A stretch of 64,000 bases of DNA from Mobula birostris (Eukaryota): assembly GCF_030028105.1 (NCBI RefSeq), contig NC_092399.1, positions 15,830,881-15,894,880 of the forward strand. The letters are read 5' to 3'. Both the position numbers and the translations under genes were made by a program. Position 1 is the first letter of the stretch; every line of letters starts with the position of its first letter. Positions 364 to 58,412 of the stretch are shown here, piece after piece. A model generated the notes under the pieces. It searched no databases. It saw nothing but the letters and a program-made list of their open reading frames with translations, and had not been told where the DNA came from.

Positions 364-1218
364 GCCCCCTGTGACGCTGCTAGTGCCAAACTGTATCAGT
401 CTCTGCCATTCCTTTAGGTGGAGAGGGGGAGCTTGCTCTCCATATTATATTGTCCAGGCTTGCGTATCTAGGCAGCTGGGATGCAACATCCACGGTTGAC
501 TCTGACTGACGGAGGCCTCACTCATAAGCAACACCTCATAAATATATTTACATTGTGACTAAACTATAAATACTTTGAAATAAATACCTCAAACAGACAA
601 ATAGATAAAACTTAAATCTTAGATGTTATGATGCATAGTATCTGATGAAAGGTAAACTTGAGGTAAAAGAATGGTCATCCCCTATGTGATGTCCAAAACC
701 TTGACATAGTTCTACTTCATTCTTTGTTGCAGTTACATTCGCTCTTCTTCAGCCCTCCCTTCCCCCAATCAGGAATAAGATACAAAATCCTGAAAGCATG
801 TACCAACAAACTCAAGGACAGCTCCTACTCCACTGTTATAAGACTATTGAATGGTTTCCTTGTATGATACAATGGACTCTTAATCTCACAATCTACTTTG
901 TTATGATCTTACACCTTATAGTCTACCTGTTATACTTTTTCTGTAGCTGTTACACTTTGTTCTGCAATCTGTTATTGTTTTAACTTGTTCAACTCAATGC
1001 ACTGTGCAATGAATTGATCAATAAGAGCAGTATGCAAGACAAGCGTTTCACTGTACTTTGACACATAAACCAATTCCATTCATATGATGTCACTGAAAAC
1101 ATGAGTTTTCTTACTCTGTTGTAGAGATATTTTATGCAATTCAGTCTGATGTGAATTTTTCAAGAGAGGGTCTGGGTCCACTACTTCAATTTCAGTAAAA
1201 CTACTTCAACTTGTATTA

Positions 1219-1398
1219 AAGTTGCTGGTGAACGCAGCAGGCCAAGCAGCATCTGTAGGAAGAGGTCAGTCCTGACGAAGGGTCTCGGCCTGAAACGTCG
1301 ACTGCACCTCTTCCTACAGATGCTGCTTGGCCTGCTGCATTCACCAGCAACTTTGATGTGTGTTGCTTGAATTTCCAGCATCTGCGGAATTCCTGTTG
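1219..1398 (+). mobile_element. Fold-back mini-Penelope insertion carrying a hammerhead motif
   Basis: About 48-bp inverted arms around the ribozyme motif; 13-bp TSD tcaacttgtatta (1206-1218 and 1399-1411). Confidence 0.85.
1267..1304 (+). ncRNA. Minimal type I hammerhead ribozyme motif (intact core)
   Basis: cagtc-CTGACGA-agg(gtctcgg)cct-GAAA-C-G-TC^gactg; stem I cagtc/gactg; loop-less stem III (ACGT palindrome). Confidence 0.8.
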
Positions 1399-1521
1399 TC
1401 AACTTGTATTAGTTAGGTTAATATTTTTTGTATATTTGGTTCGTAAAACCACCACACTTTGTCAAAAAAACCCTATGCAAGAACAAACAAATGCAATGAC
1501 AACACAAAATTGAGATGATTT

Positions 1522-3290: not shown

Positions 3291-4538
3291 ATACAGAAAG
3301 AAATAGGTAATTCTGGGTTTTAACGATTTTATGATATTACAATTGAGTTTTGAGGGATGTCCGTTAAACAGAATTAGACATTGTAACCCTAAGCTCTGAC
3401 CTCTTGGTGTATTCATTGGGAACTGTGTTGCAGCAGAACAGTTATAACCACTGAAATGGTTCAACGTCTAATTCTTGGCACAATTTATTTTTGTGTCTGT
3501 TATTTTATAGGAAGTTTATTTTTTTTGAAGGTTTCTTCTTGGCTTAAAAGCAATCTGTGACGTCATAAAAAAGAGCCTTGAACCAATTATTTTTTTGGGA
3601 AAAAAATTAGTCTATCAGAACAGAACCTGAAACAATAGCCTAGTTGAGCTTCCTGAGTACTGCTAATGAATAGTATTCAAAATTTAGACCTTCATTTGCT
3701 AAACAGTATTCAGCTATTGTTAATGCCTGATATTTTCTATCAGCTTTTAATGTGAAACTGGGGTAAAGAGTTAATGGAACCCAATAGCAACTTAAAAAAA
3801 AACAATGCAGCTTTTCTTTATGATGGCAATTCATTGCCTGAAAGCATTTTTTATGCAAGATGTGTATTTATGAATGAAAATATTACTATTTAAAATAGTG
3901 GTGCTACCTAATGTTATGAGTCACTTTGTTTTTGTCAGCAATGCATACTGCGGCTACATGATAACAATCAGTTTTTTAAAAAAATCGGTTTGCTCAAATA
4001 TTTGATGCAATTTAAATCTTTTATCTGGAGTTACAGGAGTTGATTTATTTTACTCTTACCTAAAGTGCAGGTCAAGCACTTTAAAATGAAAGTTTCTCTG
4101 GTGCTAATTGGGCCTTTGTGGGTCTCTTGACCTGAATTATAACTTAAACGTTGCAGTTTCCTTCAGAGTGTTTAGGTTTTATTTAGCTTCTAGTAAGTAG
4201 TTAGTGAACTGTCACTCTAATGCAGGAGCTGTATAGAAAGCTGAAGTGGAATGCTCTCTTTTATAATGGTTTAAGTGCATTTTTGCGGCTAGATAAATAA
4301 ACTTTGTTTACCTCCTGGTTATTTGATATCTAAGGGCTTTTCCACCATTGGTAAATTATTCTGGGGGAAAAAAAAGGAGAGCTTGGTCTGTGATTTATTG
4401 TTGACACCAAGGGCCAAGTGGGTAATTCTTTCTGTTGCTGCTTTATTGTGGAACCCACTGTTTATTTTTGAAAGCTCTTGACTTTTGTTTCTTCTACAGG
4501 TAAAGAAATACCTTTTGACAAAGTCCTGCTCATGAAAG

Positions 4539-5472
4539 ATGGAGATCACATCGTATTATACTAAACTTCTGGGAGAATTAAATGAGCAGCGTAAGCAGGA
4601 CTTCTTCTGTGACTGCAGCATAATTGTGGAGGGAAGAATTTTCAAAGCTCACCGGAACATTCTATTTGCTAACAGCGGCTACTTCAGGGCCTTGTTAATT
4701 CACTATATCCACGATAGTGGACGCCCTAGCACAGCCTCGTTGGACATTGTCACATCTGAGGCCTTTTCAATTATTCTGGACTTCCTTTATTCTGGAAAGT
4801 TGAACCTTTGCAGTAAAAATGTTATTGAAGTAATGTCGGCTGCTAGTTATCTACAGATGACGGATGTGGTCAGCTTTTGCAAGTTGTATATTAGATCTTC
4901 TCTTGACATCTGTGTGAAAGATGAAAAGGATGATGATTGCAGTCATGTGGAGAATGGAAATAATATAAATGCCTTTGGAGATGCCGTGTCCTTCTGTCGG
5001 AATCAATGTCCAAACCCTGTTCCGACAGTTCAACAACAGAAAGAGGCAAGCCCGGAGAATAATAAAGGACTTAACTGGAATGAATGCAGTACTTATCATC
5101 CCATAGATCTTGCACAAAAGGATCAAGATAATCTTTCTCCAGAGAAAGTGCATCCTCCATCGCTACCCAAGCTTCCAGAACCGAAGGTTGAATTCGACGA
5201 GGATGAAGTGGGATCGGTTGAGCGGTTCCGACAGTTTACACCGTCTGCCACAGATCAGACTGAGGAGCGGCTGCAGTCTGCCCCAGCCATGGAGATAGCT
5301 TATGAGAATTACCAGATGAAACAATTCCTGGAAGTTTTATTGAGGACAGGAAATGTCCAACGGAAAGATGACATCATGCAGCACTTTTCCCGTGGGGGGC
5401 GTCCGGAGGATGGAGGGGGCACCTTCTCGAATATGATGGATGTCCAGAGCGATTGGTATGGGGAAGATGCAG
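4539..5472 (+). CDS. ZBTB8B: ZBTB8B first coding exon (BTB/POZ domain plus linker)
   Basis: [52 protein letters not shown] is a ZBTB8B-type BTB domain. Acceptor ttcttctacAG at 4498-4499; donor AG|GTGAGA after 5472 (phase 1). Confidence 0.95.
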
Positions 5473-6200
5473 GTGAGATCACTGCAACAGCATAACATAA
5501 CGCAGAACTTTCGTTAGAAACATTGCATCCTTTGATGCAATGCATAACTATCTTAGACAAATACTAAGATTCAGATTGGAAATTCTCCACAAAAAATCTG
5601 GGAGTAATTGACTATTTCGATAGCACCTACACCTTAGTGAAACTAATGTAATACTAAGATAAATGCTGGTATATTTCAAAACATCAGCCATGTTAGTTTT
5701 GGATTGTATAAGTGGCACCAGTTTTTCTTTGTGTGACAATCCACATATTCAAATTCAGGGTCTCGGCCTGCAACATTGATTGTTTCTTCCTCTCCATAGA
5801 TGCTGCCTAATCTGTTGAGTTCCTCCAGCATTCTGTGTTCGTAGCATAGGTTTTGCGTCACAATTTAAATTCCTCAGTGTCATCAAGGTTACTCTCTTGT
5901 GATGGTGTATGAGAGTGTCTGGTGCTTTGGGCGAATCAGTATTTCCCCACAAAATGTTATCTGGGCACCAGCCCACAAATTGAATACATTCTCAGCATTT
6001 CCCCAAATCAACAAGTGACAGCGTGACTACGATGGATGGAGAGTGGGTGGAGTTTTTTTCTGTTCTGCCAGAAGCAGTAATAGATTGTGCTGCCCCTTAA
6101 GTCTATCAGGCCATTCATTAAAATTATGGCTGGGTTTGTACCTCATCCACTTTGCCTCTATCCTTAATGTCTGAAGATCTATTGAATTTGGTTTTGACTA

Positions 6201-8051: not shown

Positions 8052-8822
8052 AAAAAACTAACAATGCCCACATGGGGGGGGGGGGAAAGAAAACACCAAC
8101 AGGAACATCAAACCCCAAATGCCCAACCCCTGACTTGCACAAAAAAAACTAACGTATGGCCCACTGGTAAACAGTCTTGTATCAAATATTAATACAATCC
8201 CAAGAAGGTTCCTTGGCCACTGTTAATTGTCACCTGTTTGTAACCAGCTATCAATTATAATAGCAACAATTCTCATTTTTTAGTTAGTTTAACAAAATAT
8301 CATCTGAACATGATACGACAAAGGGATATGTTAATGCAGATGACCAGAGGTTGATCAAAGTTGGTTATAAAGAACATCTTCAAGAGGTGATGACAGAGCA
8401 ATTAGTTTCAGGACTATTCAAGAGACCAGAAAATAGATGACGTATATTGATAGTACCGGGGCTGATTACAGCAAGAGAAGGGAGTGAGGCTGAGGAGGAA
8501 TTTATAAATCAAGATGAGAATTACATTCATAGACGCAAATATATATTGGTTATGATTATAATAAGCTTGAATTTTCCCAATTTAAAAAAAACCTAAGTAA
8601 TACACAGAAAACATTGGAGGAACTCAGCAGATCAGGCAACATCTATGGAAAAAAAGTAAACAGTCAATGTTTTGAGCCAAAACACTTCATCAGGAGTAAA
8701 AAAATACTAAACCTCAATATAGAAATGCTATTGTAATTTATAATCTCACACATCTTAGTGTGGTATTTTGAAACATTTCAGATCTTTTCATACACTGACA
8801 TTTTTTTAAATCTTCTAAGGTA

Positions 8823-10444
8823 CATTGGTATGCAAATGTTTGGGCACCCCTAGTCAAAATTTCTGTTGCTGTGAATAGCTAAATCAGTAAAAGATGACCT
8901 GATTTCCAAAAAGCATAAAGTTAAAGATGACACATTTCTTTAATATTTTAAGCAAGATTACTTTTTTTTATTTCCATCTTTTACAATTTCAAAATAACAA
9001 AAAAGGAAAAGGGCCCGAAGCAAATGTTTGGGCACCCTGCATGGTCAGTACTTAGTAACAGCTCCTTTGGCAAGTATCACAGTTTGTAAATGGTTTCTGT
9101 AGCCAGCTAAGAGTCTTTCAATTCTTGTTTGGGGGATTTTGGCCCATTCTTCCTTGCGAAAGGCTTCTAGTTTTGTGAGATTCTTGGGCTGTTTTGCATG
9201 CACTGCTCTTTTGAGGTCTATCCACAAATTTTCGATGATGTTTAGACCAGGGGATTGCGAGGGCCATGACAAAACCTTCAGCTTGCACTTCTTGAGGTAG
9301 TCCATTGTGGGTTTTGAGGTGTGTTTAGGATCATTATCCTGTTGCAGAAGCCATCCTCTATTTTTCTTCAGCTTTCTTATAGACGGTGTGATGTTTGCTT
9401 CCAGAATTTGCTGGTATTTAATCGAATTCATTTCTTCCCTCTACCAGTGAAATGTTCCCCGTGCCACTGACTGCAACACAAGTCTAAAGCATGATCGATC
9501 CACCCCCGTGCTTAACAGTTGGAGAGGTGTTCTTTTCATGAAATTCTGCACCCTTTTCCAAATATACCTTTGCTCATCGTGGCCAATAAGTTCTATTTTA
9601 ACTTAATCAGTCCACAGGACTTGTTTCCAAAATACATCAGGCTTGTTTAGATGTTCCTTTGCAAACTTTTGACGCTGAAGTTTGTGTTGAGGGCGCAGGA
9701 AAGATTTTCTTCTGATGACTCTTCCATGAAGGTCATATTTGTGTAGGTGTTGCTGCACAGTAGAACAGGGCACCACCACTCCAGAGTCTGCTAAATCTTT
9801 CTGAAGGTCTTTTGTAGTCAAACGGGGTTTTGATTTGCCTGTCTACCAATCCTATGAGCAGTTCTCTCGGAAAGTTTTCTTGGTCTTCCAGACCTCAACT
9901 TGACCTCCACCGTTCCTGTTAACTGCCATTTCTTAATGACATTATGAACTGAGGAAACAGCTACCTGAAAATGCTTTGCTATCTTCCTATAGCCTTCTCC
10001 TGCTTTGTGGGCATCATTTATTTTAATTTTCAGAGTGCTAGGCAGCTACTTAGAGGAGCCCATGGCTGCTGATAGTTGGGACAAGATTTGAGGAGTCAGG
10101 TATTTATAAAGCTTTGAAATTTGCATCACCTGGCCTTTCCTAACGATGACTGTGAACAAGCCATAGCCCTAACAAGCTAATTAAGGTCTGAGATCTTGGT
10201 AAAAGTTATCTGAGAGCTCAAATCTCTTGGGGTGCCCAAACCTTTGCATGGTGCTCCTTTCCTCTTTTTCCCCACTTTAAAATTGTACAAAACAAAAATA
10301 ATACACTAATCTTGCTTAAAATGTTGAAAAGAATGTTTCATCTTTAATTTTATGACTTTTGGAGATCAGTTCATCTTCTACTCACTTAACTATTCACAGT
10401 AACAGAAATTTTGACCGGGGTACCCAAACATTTGCTTGCCACTG
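8823..10444 (-). mobile_element. Full-length decayed Tc1/mariner DNA transposon (IR/DR type)
   Basis: About 210-bp TIRs, each with two direct repeats (gcaaatgtttgggcaccc at 8832 and 9020; complements at about 10229 and 10417); TA on both flanks. Frameshifted transposase about 10063-9045 with GRPRK, WTD, QQDNDPKH and SPGLNIIENLW motifs. Confidence 0.93.
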
Positions 10445-11714
10445 TAGGCATGAAAATAAGTGCAGTAGTGTAGTAAAGTCAAAAATTACTTTAAAAAGAA
10501 GTAAATTTCCATTAAAAGAAATGGGTTTTGATGGAAGTGTTTAGATTGCACCTGTTTGTATGCCCCTTAACTTGAAAGTCTTCCAAGTCTTTCATTCAGG
10601 TAATTTTTTTTTAATGATGCCAAACTAATGGTAGATTGCATGTGTCTTTCCAAAGTAGAAAAGGAACTAATTGTAGACCTTGGTCAGACAACAAGCATAT
10701 TACTGCACAGTTGAAGCCAGAATAACTGGGAAGACTGAAAAGCTGGATATAGTAGATGTTTGTGGAGTAAGTTATGACTTTAGTTCTATTGGTGAACGTA
10801 CCACAGACATGCAATGTTGCCTTTTGAACCTACCTTCCCACTGCCCATTGTACCGATGGCGATGAGGGCAGCAATGAAGGTCCTCCATTGCTGGCAGTGT
10901 TCATTATGTCAGTCGTGCAGGTTCCAGGTGGAGACTGAGGAACACAGCCGCACCCAGGTGTGGAGGATTCTTCATTGCTGTTTCTGTAACAGTTTTGGTT
11001 TACTAGTCAGGATTGTTAGCCCTGAGCTGAACCCTCAAACCTGGAAGACCAGTGAACCACTCTTAGTCTGATCTCTACCCTTTGACCTGTTTGGCATGAG
11101 TGACCCTACCATGAGCTGAAGCATAAAGTCCTGACTGCATGTCTCAAAATCCTATGACAAGATTGTGGTACTCTTGGAAGAGCCTTTTGAAGTGGTTTCT
11201 TAAAATTATGGAATTTAATTCATGTTAAGATTATGTCTGTGATCAGCAAGGACTATTTCTTTTTAAAGATCAAGTAGTGTAAATTGATTCAACAATTTAT
11301 ACCAATTTAAAATGTATGATCTATTTGATAAAGAAAATCTAATTAATGAAGTGCATATAATTCTTTAGGATGGATTAAACGTTTCCTTGTCTGATCATGC
11401 AGGCTGGTTTATCTGACAGTGGTAGTGAGATTGCAACAATCTGACTTGGAACCCCTGAGTTATTCAGTAACTCCTGTGGTAAAATTATATGCAATTTGAT
11501 GGAGGACAGCACTGATTCTCAAATAGGATCTATTTTGTTTTATAGTTGGTTGTTGAGGTTCATATCTAACTGATAACCACTTGACAATACAAAACAATGG
11601 ATGTCTTTGGAGTGATAACCAAGAGTTTGAAAAGGTTTCTCACTGATGCCATTTGATGATAGAAATGGACTCTGTTTTACAAGTCCTGACTGTAAATTGG
11701 TTGGAATCTTTTTA

Positions 11715-11943
11715 CAAACAAAGGAAAATCTGCAGATGCTGGAAATCCAAGCAGCACACACAAAATGCTGGAGGAACTGAGCAGGCCAGGCAGCATCTAC
11801 AGAAGAAAAGTACAGTCGACATTTCAGGCTGAGATCCTTCAACAGGATTCAGTCCTGCCGAAGGGTCTCGGGCACGAAATGTCGACTATACTTTTTACCT
11901 TAGAGGTTGCCTGGCCTGCTGAGTTCATCCAGCATCCTGTGTG
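11715..11943. mobile_element. Fold-back mini-Penelope with two oppositely oriented degenerate hammerheads
   Basis: Inverted arms; motifs at 11813-11849 (-) and 11850-11887 (+); TSD-like gttggaatc(t/c)tttta. Confidence 0.75.
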
Positions 11944-12161
11944 TTGGAATCCTTTTAAACTCTGTGATGTCATGAATATTTTAAACATAAGTGGGTTCTG
12001 AAATGCAGTGTCAATGGCAAAGAATCTATGAGATATAAATAGTCATTCAATCATTTTGTAATCTCACCTGTGGGCTACTGTCACATTTTCAGTTTGTATC
12101 TGGCTGGGAGAACTAGATTTGATCAGGTAGTTGATGCCAACCAAAATGAATTGACTCTGTG

Positions 12162-13122: not shown

Positions 13123-13274
13123 CAAACAACAGGAATTCTGCAGATGCTGGAAATTCAAGCAACACACATCAAAGTTGCTGGTGAATGTAGCAGGCCAGGC
13201 AGCATCTGTAGGAAGAGGTGCAGTCGACGTTTCAGGTTGAGACCCTTCGTCAGGACTAACTGAAGGCAGAGTGG
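13123..13274 (-). mobile_element. Short Penelope pLTR insertion with an intact hammerhead (13221-13258)
   Basis: 11-bp TSD tttggggaatg; reverse complement reads tagtcCTGACGAagg..cctGAAACGTCgactg. Confidence 0.82.
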
Positions 13275-14794: not shown

Positions 14795-16390
14795 ACCATA
14801 AGATATAGGAGCAATATTAGGTCATTTGGTCTGTCGAGTTTTCTCTGCCATTTAAAAACACAAACATGAGGAATTCTGCAGATGCTGGAAATTCAAGCAA
14901 CACACATCAAAGTTGCTGGTGAACACAGCAGGCCAGACAGCATCTCTGGGAAGAGGTACAGTCAACGTTTCAGGCCGAGACCCTTCGTCAGGACATACCT
15001 CTTCCTAGAGATGCTGCCTGGCCTGCTGCGTTTACCAGCAACTTTGTGTGTTGCTTTCTCTGCCATTTCATCATTTCAATTTTGCTTTTGGCCCTAATCT
15101 CCTGCTTTCTCCCTAGACCAGTCATGAATCTATCAACCTCTGCCTCAAATATACCAATGACTTAGCCTCGACAGCTGTCTGTGGCAAAGAATTCGATGGA
15201 TTCACCACTCTCTGGCTAAAAAAATGCCTCCTCATCTGTTCTAAAAGGACACCTCTATTCTGAGGCTGTGTCCTCTGGTCTTAGACTCCCTCACCATACG
15301 AAACATGCTTTCCTCATCCACTCTATCAAGGTCTTTCACCATTCAATAGATTTCAATGAGGTCACTCCCCATTCTTCTGAATTCTAGTGAGTACAGCTCC
15401 AGAGCCATCAAACACTTTTCATATAACAAGCCATTCAATCCTGGAATCATTTTCATGAACTTTCTTTGAGCCCTCTTCAGTTTCAGCACATCCTTAGAGG
15501 TAAGGGGCCCAAAACTGCTCACTATACTCCAAGTGAGGCCTCACCAGTGCTTTATAAAGTCTCAACATTACATCCTTGCTTTTTTATTCTAGTCTTCTTG
15601 AAACATACGCTTTAATTTTGCAAGTTAACCTTTAGGAAATCCTGCACAAGGACTCACAATTCCCTTTGCGCTTGTTTTTTATATTTTTTTCTCCATTGAG
15701 AAAATAGTTAACATTTTTATTTCTTCTAACATACACTTCCTGACACTGTATTCCATCTGCCCTTTCTTTACCCACCCTTCTAATCTGTCTAATCCTCTAC
15801 TTCCTGAAAACTACCTACCCCTTCACCTATCTTCATATAGTCTGCAAACTTTGCAACAAAGCTACCAATTCCATCAAACAAATCAGTGACATCTAACAAA
15901 CAAAAAAAAACAGTCCAACGTAGATCCCTGTGGAACAGCACTAGTCACCAGCAGCCAACCAGAAAAGGTTCCCTTTATTCCCACTCTTTGCCTCCTGCCA
16001 ATCAACCACTGCTTTATCCATGTGAGAATCTTTCCTGTACTACCATGGGCTCATAGCTTGTTAAGCAGCTTCTTCTGTGGCACCTTATCTAAAGCATCCT
16101 GAAAATCCAAGTACACAACTTCAACCGATTCTCCTTTGTCTATCCTGTTGTTTCTTCAAAGAATTCCAATAGATTTGTCAGGCCAGGACTTTTCCTCGAG
16201 GAAGCTATGGTAATTACAGATTATTTTATCATGTGCCTCCAAGTACCCTGAGACCTTATCCTTGATAATCGACCCCAACATCTTCCCAACCATTGGAGTC
16301 AGACAAACTGGCCTATAGTTTCCTTTCTTCAGCCTCACTCCAAGAAGGGATTGAAGTGACACTTGCAATTGTCCAGTCTTCCCAGAACCA
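14795..16390 (-). mobile_element. CR1 LINE fragment (decayed)
   Basis: NYRPVCLT..VGKML remnant and typical CR1 3' sequence. Confidence 0.8.
14854..15054 (-). mobile_element. Fold-back mini-Penelope with hammerhead (14959-14994), inserted in a CR1 3' end
   Basis: 14-bp TSD tttctctgccattt (14840-14853 and 15055-15068); inverted arms. Confidence 0.82.
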
Positions 16391-21919: not shown

Positions 21920-22405
21920 GCAACACACATCAAAGTTGCTGGTGAACGCAGCAGGCCAGGCAGCATCTCTAGGAAGAGGTACAGTCGACGTTTCAGGCCG
22001 AGACCCTTTGTCAGGACTAACTGAAAGAGCTAGTAAAAGATTTGAGAGGAGGAGGGGGAGATCAAAATGATAGGAGAAGACAGGAGGGGGAGGGATGGAG
22101 CCAAGAGCTGGACAGTTGATTGGCAAAAGGGATATGAGAGGATCATGGGGCAGGAGGCCCGGGGAGAAGGAAAAGGGGGAGGGGGGAAAAACCCAGAGGA
22201 TGGGCAGGGGGTATAATGAGAGGGACAGAGGGAGAAAAAAAGAGAGAGAGAAAGAATGTGTGTATATAAATAAACGAATGGGGTATGAGGGGGAGGTGGG
22301 GCATTAGCGGAAGTTTGAGAAGTCAATGTTCATGCCATCAGGTTGGAGGCTACCCAGACGGAACATAAGGTGTTGTTCCTCCAACCTGAGTGTGGCTTTA
22401 TCTTT
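21920..22405 (-). mobile_element. Penelope pLTR plus GIY-YIG tail fragment nested in the Gypsy element
   Basis: Near-identical to the reverse complement of about 53420-53897. Confidence 0.85.
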
Positions 22406-36095: not shown

Positions 36096-36150
36096 TGTCT
36101 GAGAATGAAGCCATTTACATAATAGTATAAAATGGCTTCATTCTCAGACA
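36096..36150. repeat. Perfect 21-bp inverted repeat with a 13-nt spacer
   Basis: tgtctgagaatgaagccattt-(acataatagtata)-aaatggcttcattctcagaca. Confidence 0.95.
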
Positions 36151-37547: not shown

Positions 37548-37954
37548 ACACACATCAAAGTTGCTGGTGAATGCAGCAGGCCAGGCAGCATCTCTAGGAA
37601 GAGGTACAGTCGACGTTTTAGGCCGAGACCCTTCGTCAGGACTAACTGAAGGAAGAGTTAGTAAGAGATTTGAAAGTGGGAGGGGGAGGGGGAGATCCAA
37701 AATGATAAGAGGAGACAGGAGGGGGAGGGATGGAGCCAAGAGCTGGACAGGTGATTGGCAAAGGGGATATGAGAGCATCATGGGACAGGAGGTCTGGGGA
37801 GGAAGACAAGGGGGGGGGGGAATCCAGAGGATGGGCAAGGGGTATAGTCAGAGGGACAGAGGGAGAAAAAGAGTGAGAGAAAGAATGTGTGTATAAAAAT
37901 AAGTAACGGATGGGGTACGAGGGGGAGGTGGGGCATTAGCGGAAGTTAGGAAGT
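37548..37954 (-). mobile_element. Penelope pLTR fragment
   Basis: Near-identical to the 53.5-53.9 kb pLTR; 11-bp TSD tggaaatggca. Confidence 0.85.
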
Positions 37955-38869
37955 TGGAAATGGCAGTAGATTTGGTTTAATGAGTAACACACGTACAATG
38001 CCGAAGGAACTCAGCAGGTCAGACAGTATCTTTGGAAGGGAATAAACAGTTGATGTCTTGGGCTGAGGCCCTCCATAGTGGTATTGATTGCTAGTGTGAA
38101 CTTGATGAGATGAAGGGTCTTTTTTCAAGCTGTATGACTCTTGCCTCCCCCCCCCCCATCACAAAAGCTAGACTTTATTTAATTTTATTCACTCTCTGTA
38201 CTGCAGAGAAAGGGTCTGAGTACTGGTTATAGCAAAAGTTTGAGCTGTGACTATGAAACCGCTGAGCTCCGGCACCCCCACTAAACTCTTATATTACAGC
38301 AACAACACTGGGGAATTGGTGGGGTGCATCTGATTCACAAAGGATGGGCTGAGCAATAACTGCCTGAGCAGCCTACTCTCAAAGTGACAGAAGGCATGGA
38401 CGGTGTTAGTGAGCAGTTCACCTTAGGAGCACTTGACTCCACACCTCAGTACACACTTGGGCCAAGTGTAGATCAAAGTTGAACTGCCAAGGTAGGGGCA
38501 AGTAACTGCTGTTGACACGAAGACAGCACATGGTCTAATGCAAATTGGCAGCATGGCACTAGGGAGGGATGGTGTTGTTGCAAGAGAGACTGGAGAGATC
38601 ATGTCACCGCAGTATCTTTCCATCATCTGCAAGGCACAAGTCAGTGTGCGACCAGATGCCCTCTGCTTGCTCGGAGAGCGCAGCGCCAGCAAGACTCCTG
38701 CGTGTTTGGGACAAAGCAGCCTGCTTGACCGCTATCCAATAATGAGTGTAAGCCGTGTATGAACTGCCCAGAGCTTGTTCAGTGTTTGCCGCTCAGTCGT
38801 CTGTTACTTTGCAACCCTGCATGAGAGCACCAGTTATGTCAGAGGAAGAACCCACTTCCCTGCAATCTA

Positions 38870-39945
38870 AAGTGACCCCATATCTAAGAAAGGATGTGAT
38901 GCTGTTGGAGAGGATCCAGAGGGGGTTCATGAGAATGACCTCACGAATGAAAGGGTTAACATATGAGGAGCATTTGATGGGTCTGGGCCTGCACTCACTT
39001 GAGTTTATTAGAATGGTGGGGGGCATCTCATTGAAACTACCAGATATTGAAAGGCATAGATAGCGAACATGGAGATGATGTTTCCAAACACAGGCACAGC
39101 CTCAGGATACAAGGACGTACCTTCAGAACAGAGATAAGGAATAGGAACTTAAGAAATAGGAGCAGGAGTCGGCCATCTGACCTGTCGAGCCTGCTCCACC
39201 ATTCAATAAGATCATGGCTGATCTGACCATGAACTCATCTCCACCTACCTGCCTTTTCCCCACAACCCTTAATTCCTCTACTATGCAAAAGTCTATCCAA
39301 CCTTGTCTTAAATATATTTATTGAGGTAGTCTCCACTGGTTCTTTAATTTCTTTAGCCAGAGGGTGGCAAATTTGTGGAATTCATTGCCACAGAAGGCTG
39401 TGGGGGCCAAGCGACTGCGTATATTTAAAAATACGAAAAAGTCTGCAGATGCTGGAAATCCAAAGCAACACGCACAAAATGCTGGAGGAATTCAGTAGGT
39501 CAGGCAGCACCTATAGGAATGAATAGATAGTCTATGTTTTGGGCCGAGACCCTTCTTCCTGAATGGATTGGGGGGGGGGGGGAGATGCCAGAATTACAGA
39601 AGTGGGGGGAGGGGAAGGAGGCTAGCTGGATGGTGATAGTTGATGTCAGGTGGGTGGGAAAAGGTAAAGGACTAGAGAGGAAGGAATCTGATAGGAGAGG
39701 AGAGTGGACCATAGGAGAAAGGGAAGGCGGAGGAGACCCGGGGGGGGGGGGAAGGGGAGGTGAAATTCCTGGTACAATAAAAAGGTGGGAAGGTTAGCTG
39801 GAGGGTGATAGGTTCTTATTTGTAAAGGCGTCAAAGGTTACGGTGAGAAGGCAGGAGAATGAGACTGAGAGGGAAATATAAATCAGTCATGATCGAATGG
39901 TGGCTCAGACTCGACGGGCCGAACTTCCTGATTTTGCTGGTACGC
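38870..39945. mobile_element. Cluster of CR1 3' fragments in both orientations
   Basis: PYLRKDV.LLERIQR..RM remnant; inverted CR1 3'UTR at 39140-39340. Confidence 0.7.
39432..39790 (-). mobile_element. Penelope pLTR fragment (older subfamily) nested in CR1
   Basis: Similar to 1522-1860; splits a CR1 3' fragment. Confidence 0.7.
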
Positions 39946-41200: not shown

Positions 41201-41978
41201 GTTTTAAGTGGCAGAAAGTTGGCATTAACAGCAACCGGATGGTGAGGTTTTCAGAGAGAGCGTGTTCAAGACTGGTTAAGGTATGGTCACTCATGGAAAA
41301 GCAAAGAACAGTTCAAGTTTATTATCATAGGGAAAATGCTGTTTTAACGTACTCTTTTAAAGTTCCAAGTAATTTTTATTATTAAAGTACATGTATGTCA
41401 CCAAATACACCCCTGAAATTCATTTTCTTTGGACAGACACAGCCTCTTGAGCTTGCTGAGTCAGGAATTAAAATGGTCTGATTTGAACTTTGACCTTGGC
41501 TGTTTTCCCACCTAACACCACTCATCCCCAGTCTTAAATATTGCAATTCACCTCTTATTTATCTAAATTTGGGCTCATTTGTTCAATCTACAGCTACAAT
41601 CCCCCTCCCTCCACCTATAAACTTACAAATGTTTGGTCTTCAAATGAATGTTCAATTTCCATTTGAAACCTCTGTGAAATCTGATTTTGGGCAATGGTAT
41701 TCAGATTGTACTGTAGGGGTTGGAGTGAGTATGATCTCATTTGCACTTTGGTTGTTTTGATTTATATTTTATTAAATATATATCTTAAATTTGGATGGTC
41801 ATCCTGCATTAGTTGATTTTAAACTGAAAAAAACACACACACAAAGACCTTTTAATTGCTACTTTGACTTGTTTGAGATGAATTGATATATATTTGACGG
41901 GGATTATCCTCTGCTCTAAGCAAATTAATATTCTTCATGTCCTTTTCAGACTGATGTAACCCCCAGGCAGCTCTCAAG

Positions 41979-42882
41979 ATGGAGATCTCCTCACACCAAG
42001 CCCGTTTATTCCAACAGCTAAACGAACAGCGTAAGCAGGAAATGTTCTGTGACTGCAGCATCATTGTGGAGGGCAGAGTCTTTAAAGGTCACCGTAACAT
42101 CCTGTTTGCCAGCAGTGGCTACTTCCGTATGCTGCTGCTTCATAACGCCCAGGATGTGGGGCAGCCTGCCGTAGCCACATTCGACGTCTTCTCTGCAGAT
42201 GCATTTACAATTATTTTGGATTTCATCTACTCGGGGCGACTGTCCCTCACGAGCCAAAATGTGATTGATGTGATGTCAGCTGCCAGCTTCTTGCAAATGA
42301 CAGATGTAATTAATGTCTGCAAGAGCTTCATCAAATCATCCCTGGACATAAGTGAAAAAGAGAGATACTTAAGACATTCCAGTAATAGTGAAATTAAATG
42401 TGGGGAAGCACCTTCCTTGTACTCAGGCAGCCGTGGTGTAGAGATTAATGCTGGTCACGCTCAGAAGAACTCTGATTTGGGAGGTACTGTCGGACATTCC
42501 TGGAGAAATTTCAACTTTCATCAGGCAGTTTCAAACCTTCCCTGCCCCAGAGACCAATTGCCGATGTCTTTTGCCAATGACCAAGCGCCTCAGGAAGTTG
42601 CTGTTTACAAAGGCAACAGCTTGTGCAGTTTGGGTGCAAGAACGTCTGAACACATAAACACAGAACCCCAGGATCATGAGAAGAGAATAGCGGGTTCTGA
42701 GCCAATTGGTCCACTCGTGAATTATCATTTCAGGCATCAGGCAGATGCGCTGTCTCTGCCACAAAGGAACGCTGACACAGTGCAGCAACCTTCTCAAGGG
42801 AGAGATCGAAAGGCAGAAGATTGGTATCCTCCAGTGCCTACAATTGTGGAAGTTGTAGGTGACTGGAATGGAGAGAACACAG
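41979..42882 (+). CDS. ZBTB8A: ZBTB8A first coding exon (BTB/POZ domain plus linker)
   Basis: [53 protein letters not shown] is a ZBTB8A-type N-terminus. Acceptor ccttttcAG at 41948-41949; donor AG|GTAAGC (phase 1). Confidence 0.93.
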
Positions 42883-43013
42883 GTAAGCTTTCTTTAATGC
42901 CAAAGGTGCAGGCAAACCATTGAGATTTAGTGTCTGGGTATCTCATCATCTTACTGTAAATCTTTTAATTTGTTGCTTTACTAACCTGAGGCATTAAAAC
43001 AGTTCAAATGCAT

Positions 43014-44800: not shown

Positions 44801-45350
44801 CTGATAAATTAAGAGGGAAGTTGTGTACTCTGATCTAATGTTAACATCCATTGATTTAATGGCAACTTATGACAAAAAAAATCTAAAACTATAAAAGTTC
44901 CGCCTTTCCTCAACCTTGATCTTCCTGCCATTGTGTGTCAGTCACAGTTGTGTTTCTATATACATTGCATATAGAAACATTCTGACTTACCACAAGTGTG
45001 GGTGAACTTGCATTACTAATGAGTCTTGATTTTGTTTGTTGGTGCTGTTTGCTTGCACTATAATATGGCTTTGTGTTAATCTTACTAAATTCATCATTTT
45101 ATTGTCCTTCGCAACATTGCTGACTTGTTTTATTAGCTCTGCAATTATCAAGAGCAATGACCTAGATGAAAGATCTTGACCCAAAATGTCGACGGTCCAT
45201 TTCCCTCCGCAGATGCTGCCTGACCCACTGAGTTCCTCCAGCAATTTACTTTTTAATCAAGGGCAATAAGTTCTATTTCAGTTAGTAACAGTATTGTGCC
45301 TTTCCATTTTTGTTCCATTCATGTCTTTGTGTTGTTTGGACTTTTTCCAG

Positions 45351-49128: not shown

Positions 49129-50750
49129 GAATAAACTCTTGGGTTTCCAGCCAAGTATGAGTATCGATTTTTAACTGGCATTTCAAACTCTGTCCTCTTC
49201 ATCAGGGGTGATGCCTGGGCACGTCTAGTCTGGTGGTATTTATACCCCTGTTGTCCATTCCTCCTGATTGGTTAGTTCTTATCCAATCAGGTTTCTGCTG
49301 TTCCACCTTGTTTACAATCAAATTACATTTCTTACAGGAGCAAAACCTTCATCTTTGTTTAAATTCATCTTCTCTATTTTTATTTCAACAGTTTCTTTCA
49401 CCAGGCGGTTCCAAAAGCCATTGGTGTGGCACAGTAGTTTAGTGCTGTTGAAGTCAATCCTATGGCCATTGTAAATGCAATGTTCTGCTACCTCCGATTT
49501 CTCCGAGTAACCCAAACGGATTCACCAACTGTGCTCGACGTGGGTTTCCACTATGCGTCCCATCTGGCTGATATACACTGCTCCACATTCACAGAGAATC
49601 ACGTAAATGCCAGCCGCCCTGAGTCCCAGGTCATCTTGGACCCACATACACTGTGATTTGAGCTTCCTTGTGGGTTTGTGATGGTATTAATCTGGTATTT
49701 CTTCAGGATCCAGGTGATCCTTCCAGAAGCTATGGAAATATTGGGAAGACAGGCGGTAGCAATGGGTTCCTCCTTGTTAGGTTTCCTGGTTTTTCTATCA
49801 GCTCTTTTAAGGGCCCGATTGATTTCCTTCACCTGATAGCCATTCTGTAGGGACGTTGTGCATCTTATTTCTTCATGGAGATTCTCCTGGTCTGACATAG
49901 TTTTTGCACAGTTAAACAAAGTAGAAAGAACCACTCTACATTGGGAGGTGTGATGGTGGTGGTTTTGTGGAGGTATAAGTCCGTGTGAGTGGGTGTCCAA
50001 TAGATGCCATGTCCAAGGCTACCATCCAGTTTCCGTTGTATTAGAATGTCAGGAATGGGAAGCAACCATTCTCCATCTCCATCATAAATTGAATGTTTGG
50101 ATGTATACTGTTCAGATGGTCGTGGAACTGCTGGAAGTACCTAGAGTCCATGAGGCCACACTATGAAAGTGTCATCAATGTATCTGAAGAAGCATTTGGG
50201 GCATAAAGGTGATGAACTCAGAGCCCTCTCCTCAAAGTCCTCAATGTAGAAACTAACAATACTGGCAACAAGGGACACTCTGTTCATTTGTTCATAGTAG
50301 TTCCCCTTTAGAGGAAGTACATTGATGTAAACGTGTGTTCAAAAAGGTCAATGGTACCCTCATCAAACCTTGACCATAGGAGGACCAAGCTGTCCTTAAC
50401 ACACCGTGCCAATGGCTTTTGGGACCACCTGGAGAAGGAAGCCATTGAAGTAAAACCAGGGGAAAAGAATTTTAACAAAGACAAAAGATCTCATTCCTGG
50501 TAAAGACAGGAATTCGATTGTAAACAAGGTGGGATAGTGGAAACCTGATTTAACGAGGGCTAACCAATCAGGATGGATGGATGATGGAGGTATAAATACC
50601 ACCGGACTAGACATGCCCAGGCATTATCCCTGATGAAGATGGCAGAGTTGGTCATTGAAATGTCAGTTAAAATCAATATCTGTACCTGGCTGGAAACCCA
50701 AAAAGAGTTTATTGGTCATATACGCTGGGAAAGCACTAGATCCTTTTTCG
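49129..50750 (-). mobile_element. Second Penelope-like family (Poseidon-type), 5'-truncated, with inverted pseudo-LTR
   Basis: Minus-strand RYIDDTFIVWPHG, PTHTDLYL, a GIY..C.CG.VYI.Q GIY-YIG remnant and SEVAEHC. Segment about 49129-49465 is mirrored at 50398-50750; near-TSD agcataaaaggag / agcatataaggag. Confidence 0.85.
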
Positions 50751-51519
50751 AGCATATAAGGAGTTGAAAATGTTATTTTGATTCAGAAGATGGCAAGAGA
50801 GAGATGGGGAACAGAGTTTGTGGCAGGGACTAAAGATTTAGTATTTTCACAGAGTGATTTTTCTCAGCTAATAATAGATATCAAATGAACTGAGCAGAGC
50901 TACTGGGTTCACATTTTGATGCAGGTATTTATTTGTAAAATAAACATTAACTTTACAGTGTTCAGAAGAAAATCATCCCTCAGTGTTGGAAAATAACAGG
51001 TCAGGAATGACAATCACACACACAAAATGCTGGATGAACTTAGCAGGTCAGACAGTACGTGTGGAAAAAAAGTAGAGAGTCAATTTTTTGGGCGTGACCT
51101 ACTGAATTCCTCCAGCATTACTCTGGATTTCCAGCAGGTGCATAATCTCTTGTGTCTATAACTGACAGGACTAGTAGAAGGTGCAGACATGGGGTGGATT
51201 TTGTACTTTCTATGCAGATGTTTTTCATACATTAATTCAACAAATGAAACTATCTATAGAACATCTTTAACTTTTTAAGTTGTGTTGGTGTAAACAATAC
51301 TTGCAATTTAGGATCATAAACACCCCTAAAGAGTTTGTTGGCAATTGCTTTCATTGTTTGTCAATGTGCTCTGATAGATACATAGATTTAAAGGTCATTC
51401 AGTCATTGAACTAGTTCCACAATTCAATTCAATTAACTCTCGGTTCATGCAAGAATAGTATTTTACATTGCTGTGTAAATCCATAAAGAATTTGAGGATT
51501 TCTGCATAGAATATTTATT

Positions 51520-51803: not shown

Positions 51804-52055
51804 AAAGAGAGATTCATATACTTTTAAAGAATGGATTTCCACTCATTTAAAGCAATTCAGATGTATATAGCTTTCAAAGGAAGTTGTGAAATTGCTTTGT
51901 TTCAGCATAGCTGTTTGCAAGCTTCTGCATTACAATCACTTGAATTTGAAGTACATTTAAGGAATTTATGAACTAATTGTTTTACAGAGTACCCTTAAAA
52001 TTGTGTGCAAGTAGCATGAAACAAGTTTTTAATGACACTAAAGGCTATTATTACT

Positions 52056-53897
52056 CAAACAACAGGAATTCTGCAGATGCTGGAAATTCAAGCAACACAC
52101 ATAAAAGTTGCTGGTGAATGCAGCAGGCCAGGCAGCATCTCTAGGAAGAGGTGCAGTCGACGTTTCAGGCCGAGACCCTTCGTCAGGACTAACTGAAGGA
52201 AGAGTGAGTAAGGGATTTGAAAGTTGGAGGGGGAGGGGGAGATCCAAAATGATGGGAGAAGACAGGAGGGGGAGGGATGGAGCCAAGAGCTGGGCAGGTG
52301 ATAGGCAGAAGGGATACAAGAGGATCATGGGACAGGAGGGGATGGCGTTTTTGCAAGAGACAGGGTGAGAAGAGGAATAGTCCAGATAGCTATCAATCTA
52401 TTACAATCTATGTTCCGTGCCTATTCTGGTATCTGTCCCCCACTTTTCCTTCGCTACATCGACGACTGCATTGGCGCTGCTTCCTGCACGCATGCAGAGC
52501 TCGTTGACTTTATTAACTTTGCCTCCAACTTTCACCCTGCCCTCAAGATTACCTGGTCCATTTCTGACACCTCCCTCCCCTTTCTAGATCTTTCTGTCTC
52601 TGTCTCTGGAGACAGCTTATCCACTGATGTCTACTATAAACCTACTGACTCTCACAGCTATTGGGACTATTCCTCTTCTTACCCTGTCTCTTGCAAAAAC
52701 GCTATCCCCTTCTCGCAATTCCTCCGTCTCCGCCGCATCTGCTCTCAGGATGAGGCTTTTCATTCTAGGACGAGGGAGATGTCTTTTTTTAAAGAAAGGG
52801 GCTTCCCTTCCCCCACTATCCTCTGCTCTTAAACGCATCTCCCCCATTTCACGTACATCTGCTCTCATTCCATCCTCCCGCCACCCCACTAGGAATAGGG
52901 TTCCCCTGGTCCTCACCTACCACCCCACCAGCCTCCGGGTCCAACATATTATTCTCCGTAACTTCCGCCACCTCCAACGGGATCCCACCACTAAGCACAT
53001 CTTTCCCTCCCCCCACTCTCTGCATTCCGCAGGGATCGCTCCCTGCGCGACTCCCTTGTCCATTCATCCCCCCCATCCCTCCCCACTGATCTTCCTCCTG
53101 GCACTTATCCGTGTAAGTGGAACAAGTGCTACACATGCCCTTACACTTCCTCCCTTACCACCATTCAAGGCCCCAAACAGTCCTTCCAGGTGAGGCAACA
53201 CTTCACCTGTGAGTCGGCTGGGGTGATGTACTGCGTCCGGTGCTCCCGATGTGGCCTATATATTGGCGAGACCCGACGCAGACTGGGAGACCGCTTTGCT
53301 GAACACCTACGCTCTGTCCGCCAGAGAAAGCAGGATCTCCCAGTGGCCGCACATTTTAATTCCACATCCCATTCCCATTCTGACATGTCTATCCACGGCC
53401 TCCTCTACTGTAAAGGTGAAGCCACACTCAGGTTGGAGGAACAACACCTTATATTCCGTCTGGGTAGCCTCCAACCTGATGGCATGAACATCGACTTCTC
53501 TAACTTCCGCTAATGCCCCACCTCCCCCTCGTACCCCATCTGTTACTTATTTTTATATACACATTCTTTCTCTCACTCTCCTTTTTCTCCCCCTGAATAT
53601 ACCCCCTGCCCATCCTCTGGGTCCCCCCCGCCCCCTTGTCTTTCTTCCCGGACCTCCTGTCCCATGATCCTCTCGTATCCCCTTTTGTCTATCACCTGTC
53701 CAGCTCTTGGCTCTATCCCTCCCCCTCCTGACTTCTCCTATCATTTTGGATCTCCCCCTCCCCCTCCTACTTTCAAATCCCTTACTCACTCTTCCTTCAG
53801 TTAGTCCTGACGAAGGGTCTCGACCTGAAACGTCGACTGCACCTCTTCCTAGAGATGCTGCCTGGCCTGCTGCGTTCACCAGCAACTTTTATGTGTG
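52056..53897 (+). mobile_element. Penelope-like element (Neptune-type), 5'-truncated, with inverted pseudo-LTR
   Basis: RT motif LRYIDDCIG, thumb-region motifs (LPFLD, YYKPTD, IPFSQFLRLRRICS) and GIY-YIG (VMYCVRCSRCGLYIGETRRRLGDRFAEH). pLTR 53514-53897 is mirrored by an inverted copy at 52056-52340; 14-bp TSD aggctattattact. Confidence 0.92.
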
Positions 53898-54714
53898 AGG
53901 CTATTATTACTGTTTGGACTCAAGTTTATCATCACTGACATATGTGAAATTTGTTGCTTTATGGTCTTTTTTCCTGTGTTTAGCCCATATCCCTCTGAAC
54001 ATTTCCCATCCGTGTTCTTGTTGAAATGTCTTTTAAGCAGTGGAATTGTACCTACCTCTACCACTTCTTCTTGTTCCACATACTCACCAGCTTCTTCGTG
54101 AAGAATTTGCTCCTTGGTCCGTGAAATTACTTCCATCTCACCTTAAATATATATTAAGCAACCATTCATTTCATTTTTTGCCTCTCATTAACTTTTATAT
54201 CCAATGCAAGATATTAAAAATACCACGTTGCAATTTTTTAAATGCAAAAGGGAAATAGTAAGGTAGTATTTTTGAATTCATGGACTGTTCAGAAATCTGT
54301 TGGGAGGATGGGACGAAGCTGTTCTAAAATGTTCAGGCTCCCTGTACCTCCTCCCTGATGGTAGTAATGAGAAGAGTGCATATCCCAGATGGCAAGGGTT
54401 CTTCATGATGGATGCTGCCTTCTTGAGTCATCACCTTTTGAAGGTTTCTCAATTGCCTTGGTGGGAGCTGTAGGCTTCCATTGAGACAGGAGATGCTGAG
54501 GTGGGGGTGGCGTGGGATGGATTTGTGAGTTGGCCTGCTCTTTTGGCCATTTACACAGGACTTCTCTATGCCCTGGACCCAAGGCTCTCAGTATCAACAA
54601 CAGTGGTCCTCCACTTTGGCCATGTGTGAGGGATTTTCTGGAGTCAGTGGGTATTGTTGGGCATCATTCGGGAGTTCTGACATTATTGATAGCATAATTA
54701 GCGATTAACTAAAA

Positions 54715-55640
54715 TTAGAACATAGAATAGTACAGCACAGTACAGGCCCTTTGGCCCACAATGTTGTGCTGACCCTCAAACCCTACCTCCCATATAAGCC
54801 CCCACCTTAAATTCCTCCATATACCTGTCTAGTAGTCTGTTAAACTTCACTAGTGTATCTGCCTCCACCACTGACTCAGGCAGTGCATTCCACGCACCAA
54901 CCACTCTCTGAGTAAAAAACCTTCCTCTAATAACCCCCTTGAACTTCCCACCCCTTACCTTAAAGCCATGTCCTCTTGTATTGAGCAGTGTTGCCCTGGG
55001 GAAGAGGCACTGGCTATCCACTCTATCTATTCCTCTTATTATCTTGTACACCTCTATCATGTCTCCTCTCATCCTCCTTCTCTCCAAAGAGTAAAGCCCT
55101 AGCTCCCTTAATCTCTGATCATAATGCATACTTTCTAAACCAGGCAGCATCCTGGTAAATCTCCTCTGTACCCTTTCCAATGCTTCCACATCCTTCCTAT
55201 AGTGAGGCGACCAGAACTGGACACAGTACTCCAAGTGTGGCCTAATCAGAGTTTTATAGAGCTGCATCATTACATTGCGACTCTTAAACTCTATCCCTCG
55301 ACTTATGAAAGCTAACACCCCATAAGCTTTCTTAACTACCCTATCCACCTGTGAGGCAACTTTCAGGGATCTGTGGACATGTATCCCCAGATCCCTCTGC
55401 TCCTCCACATTAGCAAGTATCCTGCCATTTACTTTGTACTCTGCCTTGGCGTTTTGTCTTTCCAAAGTGTACCACCTCACACTTCTCCGGGTTGAACTCC
55501 ATCTGCCACTTCTCAGTCCACTTCTGCATCCTATCAATGTCTCTCTGCAATCTTCGACAATCCTCTACACTATCTACAACACCACCAACCTTTGTGTCAT
55601 TTGTAATCTTGCCAACCCACCCTCCTACCCCCACATCCAG
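54715..55640 (-). mobile_element. CR1 LINE 3' fragment (young)
   Basis: Long open reading frame with EQRDLG, LYKTLIRPHLEYCVQFWSP, LERVQRRFTRM, TRGH and FFTQRVV.AWNALP motifs. Confidence 0.92.
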
Positions 55641-57399: not shown

Positions 57400-57467
57400 T
57401 TTGGCGAAAGTAACCAGTGACGTAACAGCGCTTCCACTTCCTGCTTTATTTGGTAAGGGTGAAGAGC
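57400..57467 (+). promoter_or_regulatory. FUCA1 proximal promoter / 5'UTR
   Basis: CRE/ATF-like TGACGTAA (57418-57425) and ETS-like ACTTCCTG (57436-57443) just upstream of the ATG, in CpG-rich sequence that extends into intron 1. Confidence 0.5.
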
Positions 57468-57823
57468 ATGGAGTGGAAGTGTTTCTTGAGTTTTATTTTC
57501 CTTACTGTGGGTTTAGGTACCGGAGAACCTTCCGTTCGCCGTTACCAACCGAATTGGAAGAGCCTTGACAGCAGGCCTTTACCCGGCTGGTACGACGAGA
57601 GCAAATTTGGGATTTTCATCCACTGGGGAGTATTTTCTGTGCCTAGTTTCGGGAGCGAATGGTTCTGGTGGAATTGGAAAGGGAGGCACTTACGTGAGTA
57701 TGCGGAGTTTATGACAAAGAACTACCCACCGGGATTCGAATACAGCGAGTTCGCTCCAGAATTTACAGCTAGCTTCTTTAATCCAGATCAATGGGCGGAA
57801 CTGTTCGAGGAATCCGGAGCTAG
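57468..57823 (+). CDS. FUCA1: Tissue alpha-L-fucosidase (GH29) exon 1
   Basis: Signal-peptide-like [19 protein letters not shown], then [44 protein letters not shown]; donor AG|GTACAG (phase 2). Confidence 0.93.
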
Positions 57824-58146
57824 GTACAGTAAAAATACGGTCAAACGTGAGCATTCATTGAGTGATTGAGGTGTTTATTTGCAAAAGGCAGATATTCAAA
57901 GTACTTTTTATCATCAAACTATGTATACATTATACAGCCGTGCGATTCGTCTCCTTACAGGCATCTACAAAACAGGAAACCCTTAAAAACCGACAAACAC
58001 CCCATGCGCAGAGAGAAAAAAGCCATAATAACGGAGTTATCAATATAAAGGCGACTTTGCTGCGCTTGAATCTGCTGGTGGAGTTTGGCGGGTGTAATTT
58101 ATTTCATTTGGCCCGGGAATACGGTCATTGCTGTTTTGCATTATAA

Positions 58147-58412
58147 AACCACATGAAATCCAGGTCACATGATGCACAATCGCGTGACAACCCCTTCGGG
58201 CGGGGCGACACCGGGGAGACTGCAGATGCCGAATGTGAAATCACATGACATCCAGGTTACGCGATGCATAACCACGTGACAACCCCCTTCGGGCTGGGCG
58301 ACTGCGGATGCTGAATATGAAATCACCTGACATCCAGATCACGTGATGCACAAAATCACATGACAACCCCTTCGGGCCGGGCGGCTCCGGGGAGAGTGCA
58401 GATGCTGTAAAT
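58147..58412 (+). repeat. Three-copy tandem repeat (about 82-93 bp unit) rich in E-boxes, FUCA1 intron 1
   Basis: Unit aaatCACATGAcatccaggtCACRTGAtgcacaa-CACRTGACaaccccttcggg...ctgcagatgc starts at about 58147, 58238 and 58320. Confidence 0.9.

Follow-up and report, generated by a model that had tools for sequence, protein, structure and literature searches.

A 180-bp insertion near the start of the 64-kb window (the whole stretch of DNA analysed here) folds back on itself around a hammerhead ribozyme motif, which raises the question of whether such hairpins propagate as a family of their own or are left behind by a larger element. We found that the fold-backs are likely insertions that were dead on arrival, cut back to an extreme degree at the 5' end and derived from a Neptune-type Penelope-like retroelement of high copy number, each likely formed independently.

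Structure of the E1 insertion and its hammerhead

The initial annotation described this first insertion, E1, as 180 bp with a 13-bp target-site duplication (TSD) and reverse-complement arms around an intact hammerhead core, and our analysis confirmed this description. The insertion lies at 1219-1398, and its 13-bp TSD copies (1206-1218 and 1399-1411) match exactly, with a score of 13 versus a maximum of 10 among 60 random control pairs. The segments 1215-1266 and 1306-1357 are 96% complementary, and their element-derived portions, 1219-1266 and 1306-1353, form inverted arms of 48 bp about a minimal hammerhead core. Counting all arm and end coordinates from C3 of the hammerhead (position 1272 in E1), the inverted arm (1219-1266, minus strand) is a tailless pLTR tip running from +34 to about +81. 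The junction that follows (1267-1271, plus strand) forms the 5' strand of helix I in the hammerhead and has a 4-nt microhomology that can be read as either arm. A minimal type I hammerhead, comprising the core, helix II and a 4-nt palindrome replacing helix III, occupies 1272-1304 on the plus strand (motif definition from the available part of PMC4209133), and the direct arm (1305-1398, plus strand) consists of the pLTR tip plus a tail of ~35 nt starting at ~1363. Insertions of this kind had been proposed to give dsRNA hairpins if transcribed, and the predicted E1 RNA fold supports this (-120.1 kcal/mol, z -15; equal stability in 0 of 200 shuffles).

The E1 hammerhead, with its CUGACGA...GAAA core at 1272-1295, helix I strands at 1267-1271 and 1300-1304 and a predicted cut after 1299, is of the minimal PLE type without helix III. 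This call rests on the core motif and the published description of minimal hammerheads; an Rfam scan returned no hammerhead family among nine matches at E<=1. The miRNA families matched in that scan scored far below their gathering scores, reflect the long stem and were set aside. The stable helix III and open core of an active monomeric hammerhead are absent from the E1 prediction, in which the lowest-energy fold pairs the core internally and lies 4.0 kcal/mol below the open-core fold. According to the part of PMC4209133 available, a lone minimal PLE hammerhead motif did not cleave in vitro. Sequence 5' of the cut site is present in the tailed arms of E1, E2 and E3, and since this sequence was copied, the template was uncleaved. 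The hammerhead is likely to be a passenger, and we predict that the monomer does not cleave. A cleaved template was also considered and rejected, as an end at the cut site can be read only in the E1 inverted arm and the tailed arms reach 5' of the cut.

Further small fold-backs and the large element at 52-54 kb

Four other small fold-backs were located in the window. E2 (14854-15054, minus strand) was borne out as an independent fold-back with a TSD of its own, an exact 14-bp repeat at 14840-14853 and 15055-15068; its tailed arm runs from -3 to +137, its inverted arm from +33 to +94, and its hammerhead core is intact. E3 (11715-11942) belongs to an older subfamily, with arms starting at -2 and -5. 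It too has its own TSD (11700-11714 and 11943-11957; 15 bp with one mismatch), as had been claimed; the single hammerhead expected in its loop was replaced by two head-to-head hammerheads, both with mutated cores. The degraded copies flagged near 51015 and 59692 are indeed degraded fold-backs, E4 (about 51015-51155) and E5 (about 59690-59809). Their TSD search scores of 4 and 8 were not above chance in comparison with random control pairs, leaving E4 without a convincing TSD and E5 with one at chance level.

The element at 52-54 kb is itself a fold-back, with an inverted arm, a one-sided tail and a 14-bp TSD (52042-52055 and 53898-53911), and reproduces the layout of the small fold-backs at 1.8 kb. 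Its left arm (52056-52345, minus strand) is the 3' part of the pLTR with hammerhead and tail, 5'-truncated at about -155. Its right arm (52392-53897, plus strand) contains a 5'-truncated, frameshifted ORF, the 3' UTR and a hammerhead, with no tail; this hammerhead (53807-53839, core 53807-53830) lies downstream of the stop at 53513. Between the arms is a junction piece (52334-52391, minus strand), an inverted copy of the ORF segment 52656-52713, whose arrangement suggests that a template jump may have occurred during integration. This piece is 58 nt long and has short homology to the left arm.

The ORF, which ends at 53513, has the order RT (YIDD), linker (CX4CXXC) and GIY-YIG, and the YIDD and YIG motifs are visible in its translation. 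As it begins just before the YIDD motif and is broken over three frames, the element is truncated and frameshifted and is therefore a dead copy that cannot be the mobiliser, the role initially proposed for it. The window contains no full-length copy. The proposal that the small fold-backs belong to the same family, as minimal Penelope products made up of a pLTR tip and an inverted tip, did hold, as the E1 direct arm is 96% identical to the arm of the large element (5 of 132 sites differ). The window thus contains an RT with a C-terminal GIY-YIG and a pLTR hammerhead near the 3' end. The linker in ORF 52995-53513 agrees with the CX2-5CxxC motif between RT and EN that defines the Neptune clade (available part of PMC8557442), and Nematis shares a linker motif; the CX4CXXC sequence indicates that the parent element is probably a Neptune (or Nematis). 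Typically, a Penelope insertion includes an inverted, 5'-truncated copy and has a tail of 30-40 bp on one side (PMC8557442, Fig. 2 legend, from the part available), and an inverted 5'-truncated copy with a one-sided 30-40 nt tail and a TSD was found in E1, E2, E3 and the large element.

A Pfam scan of the ORF pieces in the window matched no family. When four relatives (51-90% identical) were scanned, GIY-YIG was found in three of the four at E<0.001 and RVT_1 in two of the four, these matches being mostly below or near the curated cut-off. The endonuclease piece had 17 protein matches, led by a Mobula hypostoma protein (90% identical) and followed by Hypanus and shark proteins, the latter 64-68% identical, which makes a ray the likely host. 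Ray proteins named ABHD14A, chitinase domain-containing 1 and mucin-2 isoforms include pieces of the element ORF, through either exonisation or annotation error.

Census of the family

The 64-kb window was searched by BLAST and nhmmer with the window copies, and then with a profile built from 14 arms. This yielded 23 arms at 17 loci of the Neptune-type Penelope family, made up of six fold-backs and 11 single arms. The initial annotation had listed none of these single arms and had not recognised the large element as a fold-back. The profile search of the window returned no more arms below E 0.05, with the next match at E 0.057 and a best E of 4.7 in the reversed-window control.

Six of the 11 single-arm loci are as short as the fold-backs. 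These mini copies comprise 13123-13274 (minus strand), which has a tail, a 5' end at -21 and an 11-bp TSD; 45159-45255 (plus strand), of the older subfamily, with a 5' end at about -3 and a 12-bp TSD with one mismatch; 5757-5862 (plus strand), with a 5' end at +7 and a 10-bp TSD with one mismatch and a chance-level score; 8591-8696 (minus strand), with a 5' end at about -3 and a weak, A-rich TSD; 56987-57095 (plus strand), with a 5' end at about -4 and no clear TSD; and 37984-38076 (minus strand), with a 5' end at about +7 and no TSD found. The longer copies are all on the minus strand. Those at 37548-37954 (11-bp TSD) and 21920-22405 are without a tail, while three belong to the older subfamily: 1525-1924, with a tail, a deleted hammerhead and a 13-bp TSD with one mismatch; 39436-39745, with a tail; and 63240-64000, a long copy running past the window edge.

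Outside the window, contigs of four public runs were aligned to 53300-53930, giving 101,904, 139,814, 51,118 and 6,645 aligned records and showing three organisms in which the family is very abundant. A hammerhead pattern scan of metagenome and viral contigs gave zero matches. The 32 metagenome loci matching a 20-nt tip pattern were attributed to chance, with element matches of <=29 nt among the best 40 BLAST rows.

Arm ends and the stop beside the hammerhead

The 3' ends of the arms fall into two classes, at +126 to +137 with a tail and at about +81 to +95 without, and one arm of each class is present in E1, E2, E3 and the large element. Of the 23 5' ends, seven fall at -5 to -2 and a single one at -21; seven more lie beyond -150, and the other eight are found from +7 to +55. 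Arm ends were set by hand, and the width of the test interval was picked after seeing the data. On this basis, clustering within 4 nt had P 0.0002 for the 16 short arms against a uniform null, P 0.002 for the nine TSD-bounded arms (two TSDs being weak) and P 0.004 for one arm per TSD-bounded locus (4/6); widening the interval to 8 nt raised P to 0.02-0.04 against the same null. The stop coordinate is shared by tailed and tailless arms, although these are unequal in length (length-permutation P<0.001), and the stop is therefore tied to sequence rather than to length.

This clustering could in principle be a detection or alignment artefact, in which homology fades upstream and truncation is random and short, an explanation that bears only on the hot spot and not on the identity of the element. 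Short old arms are hard to detect, the older copies at 8591, 37984 and 56987 are without a good TSD, and the references may omit the upstream sequence of their subfamily. Several observations argue against an artefact, which we consider unlikely. The 40 nt upstream of the stop are 78-88% pyrimidine in all five long copies measured versus 33-57% in 11 short arms, ends are fixed by TSDs and fold-back junctions independently of alignment, and both the coincidence of tailed and tailless stops and the lack of extra arms below the E 0.05 threshold of the profile search run counter to it.

The stop site coincides with the 5' strand of helix I and with a predicted splice acceptor, an AG at -4/-3 in both subfamilies. 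A third feature at this place is a sequence resembling an initiator, which spans about -10 to -6. In D. virilis Penelope, the 5' end of helix I marks where the intron ends (PMC4209133), though transcription starts well upstream (PMC2377424), as given in the available parts of these papers. Our results suggest that the stop at the hammerhead 5' edge is a programmed one, set by an RNA 5' end, a splice acceptor or a ribozyme helix. If the RNA begins at the stop site, cDNAs primed internally at the 5'-most tail and extended to run-off would have just the size seen here.

Some further observations concern this region. The copy at 37548-37954 has a branch-point-like heptamer at 37663-37657, a pyrimidine tract at 37640-37656 and an AG directly 5' of helix I (minus strand), and the same acceptor-like arrangement is seen in the 52186 and 63335 copies, i.e. 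in both subfamilies. A candidate splice donor lies in the ORF near 53188-53196. Copying of a spliced template was not supported, as the short arms have no common first exon upstream of -2. Two contig signals were set aside: organism C has 210 loose contig ends at 53803 (-4), whose consensus is rich in pyrimidines and of low agreement, so that subfamily divergence may be their cause, and summed contig depth rises over the hammerhead but is equally high over part of the ORF and is confounded by other subfamilies. The literature searches, which covered few subscription papers, listed no report of batoid Penelope fold-backs or of a hammerhead 5' stop.

Formation and joining of the arms

The pattern common to the fold-backs is a TSD of 13-15 bp around two head-to-head arms, one extending to +126-+137 with a tail and the other to ~+81-+94 without. 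We infer that the GIY-YIG endonuclease of the element would nick both target strands 13-15 nt apart, and that the RT would prime two cDNAs on one RNA at two internal start sites bounding the tail. Both cDNAs would stop early, preferentially at the hammerhead 5' edge, whether this edge is where the RNA begins, a splice-acceptor boundary or a barrier formed by helix I, and their 3' ends would then become joined. The complementary helix I strands could provide the microhomology that leads to the nearly identical junctions of E1 and E2. A point against this explanation is the outer end of the E1 inverted arm, which falls ~10 nt before the place where tailless arms usually end. In vitro, the anole element PAc has two RT start sites that bound the tail, both strands are nicked, hammerhead cleavage is not needed and hammerhead mutants still insert (available part of PMC11167929).

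Snap-back self-priming departs from the two-cDNA explanation only at the joining step: a cDNA stopping at helix I would fold onto the other helix-I strand and copy itself. The E1 junction lies inside helix I with 4 nt of complementarity and the E1 arms differ at 1 of 53 sites, both as this model would have it, and inverted Penelope junctions with palindromes and TSDs have been read as self-priming (PMC3846280, in the part available). We nevertheless consider snap-back very unlikely. The outer ends of the inverted arms of E2, E3, E4, E5 and the large element (~+87 to +95) match the 3' ends of tailless single-arm copies, and therefore fit a second RT start site; in addition, both E3 arms run through the hammerhead, and the large element is joined at a point remote from helix I.

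Independent insertions or a mobile hairpin family

Variants were compared among nine young arms. A private T at +55 is present in both E1 arms and absent from the other seven young arms, and a private T at +83 is present in both arms of the large element. Since the arms of one insertion have private variants in common, a single template likely gave rise to each insertion. E1 has C at +45 in common only with the single-arm copy 13123-13274, and T at +33 is common to E2 and the single-arm copies at 21920 and 37548. E1 and E2, the two youngest fold-backs, therefore side with different single-arm copies, which indicates independent formation rather than a retrozyme-like family; this sub-lineage argument uses three diagnostic sites, and conversion could homogenise the arms of a hairpin.

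Other features of E1 and E2 bear on the same point. The two differ at 11 of 130 sites. Their junctions have the same spacing, with two differing bases between the same flanks, and both fall one base short of a perfect helix-I join. A single substitution per copy would make the two compatible with a common junction, which counts against independent formation. The junctions of E3, E4, E5 and the large element differ from those of E1 and E2, and all five small fold-backs end differently; two of the five share a junction register, but neither ends nor diagnostic variants. On the breakpoints, the initial annotation had noted that its three clear copies partly suggest a unique one for each copy. This is so for the junctions of E3, E4 and E5, but the breakpoints are not random, as the equal spacing in E1 and E2 shows, a point in favour of the initial proposal.

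Head-to-tail tandem hammerhead units were not found: none of six TRF rows overlaps the fold-back loci, and the two hammerheads of E3 are on opposite strands. Fifteen of 256 contig joints and 12 of 208 between-letter rows were listed. Two of the 15 joints are strand-switch joints, -457/+49 and -31/+37, each in one contig, with depths of 28.7 and 79.1, and another, +32/-4 with three added bases, is from a related organism and of a kind not stated. There was no deep shared junction among the 15 joints listed, which also omit the E1 and E2 junctions.

These data can be set against the possibility of a self-propagating, non-autonomous hairpin-ribozyme family, in which a fold-back master would be transcribed and re-inserted by the Neptune protein. 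Such a family would account for the common junction register of E1 and E2 and could have left the single +32/-4 joint of unstated kind in a related organism. E1 and E2 also each keep the tail and the RT start region, which can mobilise sequence in trans (PMC3846280, in the part available). The initial suggestion of a retrozyme-like family of this sort was nevertheless not supported, and we judge it very unlikely, given the 11 of 130 differences between E1 and E2 and their different single-arm allies, the differing ends and the differing E3, E4 and E5 junctions, the lack of tandem units and, as a weaker point, strand-switch joints found in one contig each (two among the 15 of 256 listed). Independent formation at a hot spot stands well ahead of it.

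The narrower version, in which the helix-I-joined fold-backs are a mobile family in their own right, consisting of a 180-200 nt hairpin RNA with the ribozyme at its apex, is similarly a long shot. Helix I would here be locked by a 50-bp stem, and the Neptune RT/endonuclease would re-insert the RNA via the retained tail. If true, this family would mirror the retrozymes in head-to-head form and would place perfect dsRNA hairpins in the introns of rays.

Host context and neighbouring features

The window contains BTB exons at 4536-5495 and 41955-42923 (Pfam BTB) and zinc-finger motifs at 17540 and 44158. These outline a tandem pair of plus-strand BTB-zinc-finger genes, which we take to be ZBTB8-like, and CpG-island-like windows are present at 40.0-40.5 and 58.0-58.5 kb. 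E2 and E3 are positioned between the BTB exon and the zinc-finger exon of one gene and are likely intronic; E1, upstream of the first BTB exon, is possibly in the first intron. The first 40 kb contain eight single-arm copies, of which seven (those at 1525, 8591, 13123, 21920, 37548, 37984 and 39436) lie on the minus strand and so run against the BTB genes. This could be due to selection against splice acceptors in the sense direction.

Several neighbouring features were also noted. Hammerhead-core-like motifs at 49181-49205 (minus strand) and 50630-50660 (plus strand) face each other ~1.4 kb apart with a decayed ORF (49599-50018) between them, and possibly mark a second, unrelated Penelope family with inverted ends. 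On the minus strand, a 262-aa frame at 54776-55564 resembles the C-terminus of a CR1/L2-type LINE RT, a 131-aa frame at 9045-9440 resembles, in our estimation, the C-terminus of a Tc1-type transposase, and a 147-aa frame at 57426-57869 is assumed to resemble an alpha-L-fucosidase first exon. The last of these is near the CpG-rich 58.0-58.5 kb region, and an 82-bp tandem duplication lies at 58214-58390. A perfect 21-bp inverted repeat with a 13-nt loop (36096-36150) is unrelated to the Penelope tip.

Significance

How PLEs make inverted ends and what their hammerheads do are still open questions in the available parts of PMC8557442 and PMC11167929. As elements, the fold-backs are mostly ordinary Penelope debris; the unusual point is that many copies stop beside the ribozyme. 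Their value is as fossils of the Penelope integration mechanism. If the stop and the helix-I junction hold genome-wide, young ray copies would map the 5' boundary of the RNA template, and twin priming versus self-priming would become testable by counting alone. By analogy with inverted Alu pairs, intronic hairpins of 50-90 bp could also be ADAR or Dicer substrates.

Comparison with known systems

In L1 twin priming, two cDNAs are made from one RNA and joined through microhomology to give an inversion. The L1 segments do not overlap, whereas the arms of a fold-back both originate close to the 3' end, so that they overlap and make a hairpin.

The closest likeness is to complex insertions of EN+ Penelope elements (available parts of PMC8557442 and PMC3846280), which also have head-to-head arms, a one-sided tail of 30-40 nt, a TSD, strong 5' truncation and complementary sequence at the inverted junction. 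The present arms differ in being 50-140 nt long with no ORF left, so that the insert is one hairpin, and in the stop cluster at the hammerhead 5' edge, of which we found no description in those parts. With Neptune PLEs the large element has in common YIDD, the CX4CXXC linker, a GIY-YIG-like motif pair and a minimal pLTR hammerhead, the assignment being by motifs; compared with their RT, Zn-finger-like linker and C-terminal GIY-YIG, the window copy is without the N-terminal half of the RT.

The minimal type I PLE hammerheads described in the available part of PMC4209133 resemble that of E1 in their intact core, extra base at the helix II 5' end, short helix I and palindromic 4-mer replacing helix III. 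In E1, however, helix I is extended 48 bp further, and in the present copies the helix II closing pair is G-U or A-U, not G-C. According to the same part of that paper, metazoan PLE motifs are mostly single and tied to truncated PLEs, with some close opposite-strand pairs. PAc, a Poseidon element of Anolis, is similar in its 3' end classes ~35-40 nt apart, in two-strand priming and in the copying of an uncleaved hammerhead into DNA; it belongs to a different clade, and inverted junctions and 5' stops are not addressed in the available part of PMC11167929. Finally, non-LTR retrozymes (available part of bioRxiv 10.64898/2026.07.22.740005) are, like the fold-backs, non-coding, pLTR-derived and hammerhead-bearing, but they are head-to-tail tandem repeats with a hammerhead per unit, whereas the fold-backs are single head-to-head inserts with TSDs.
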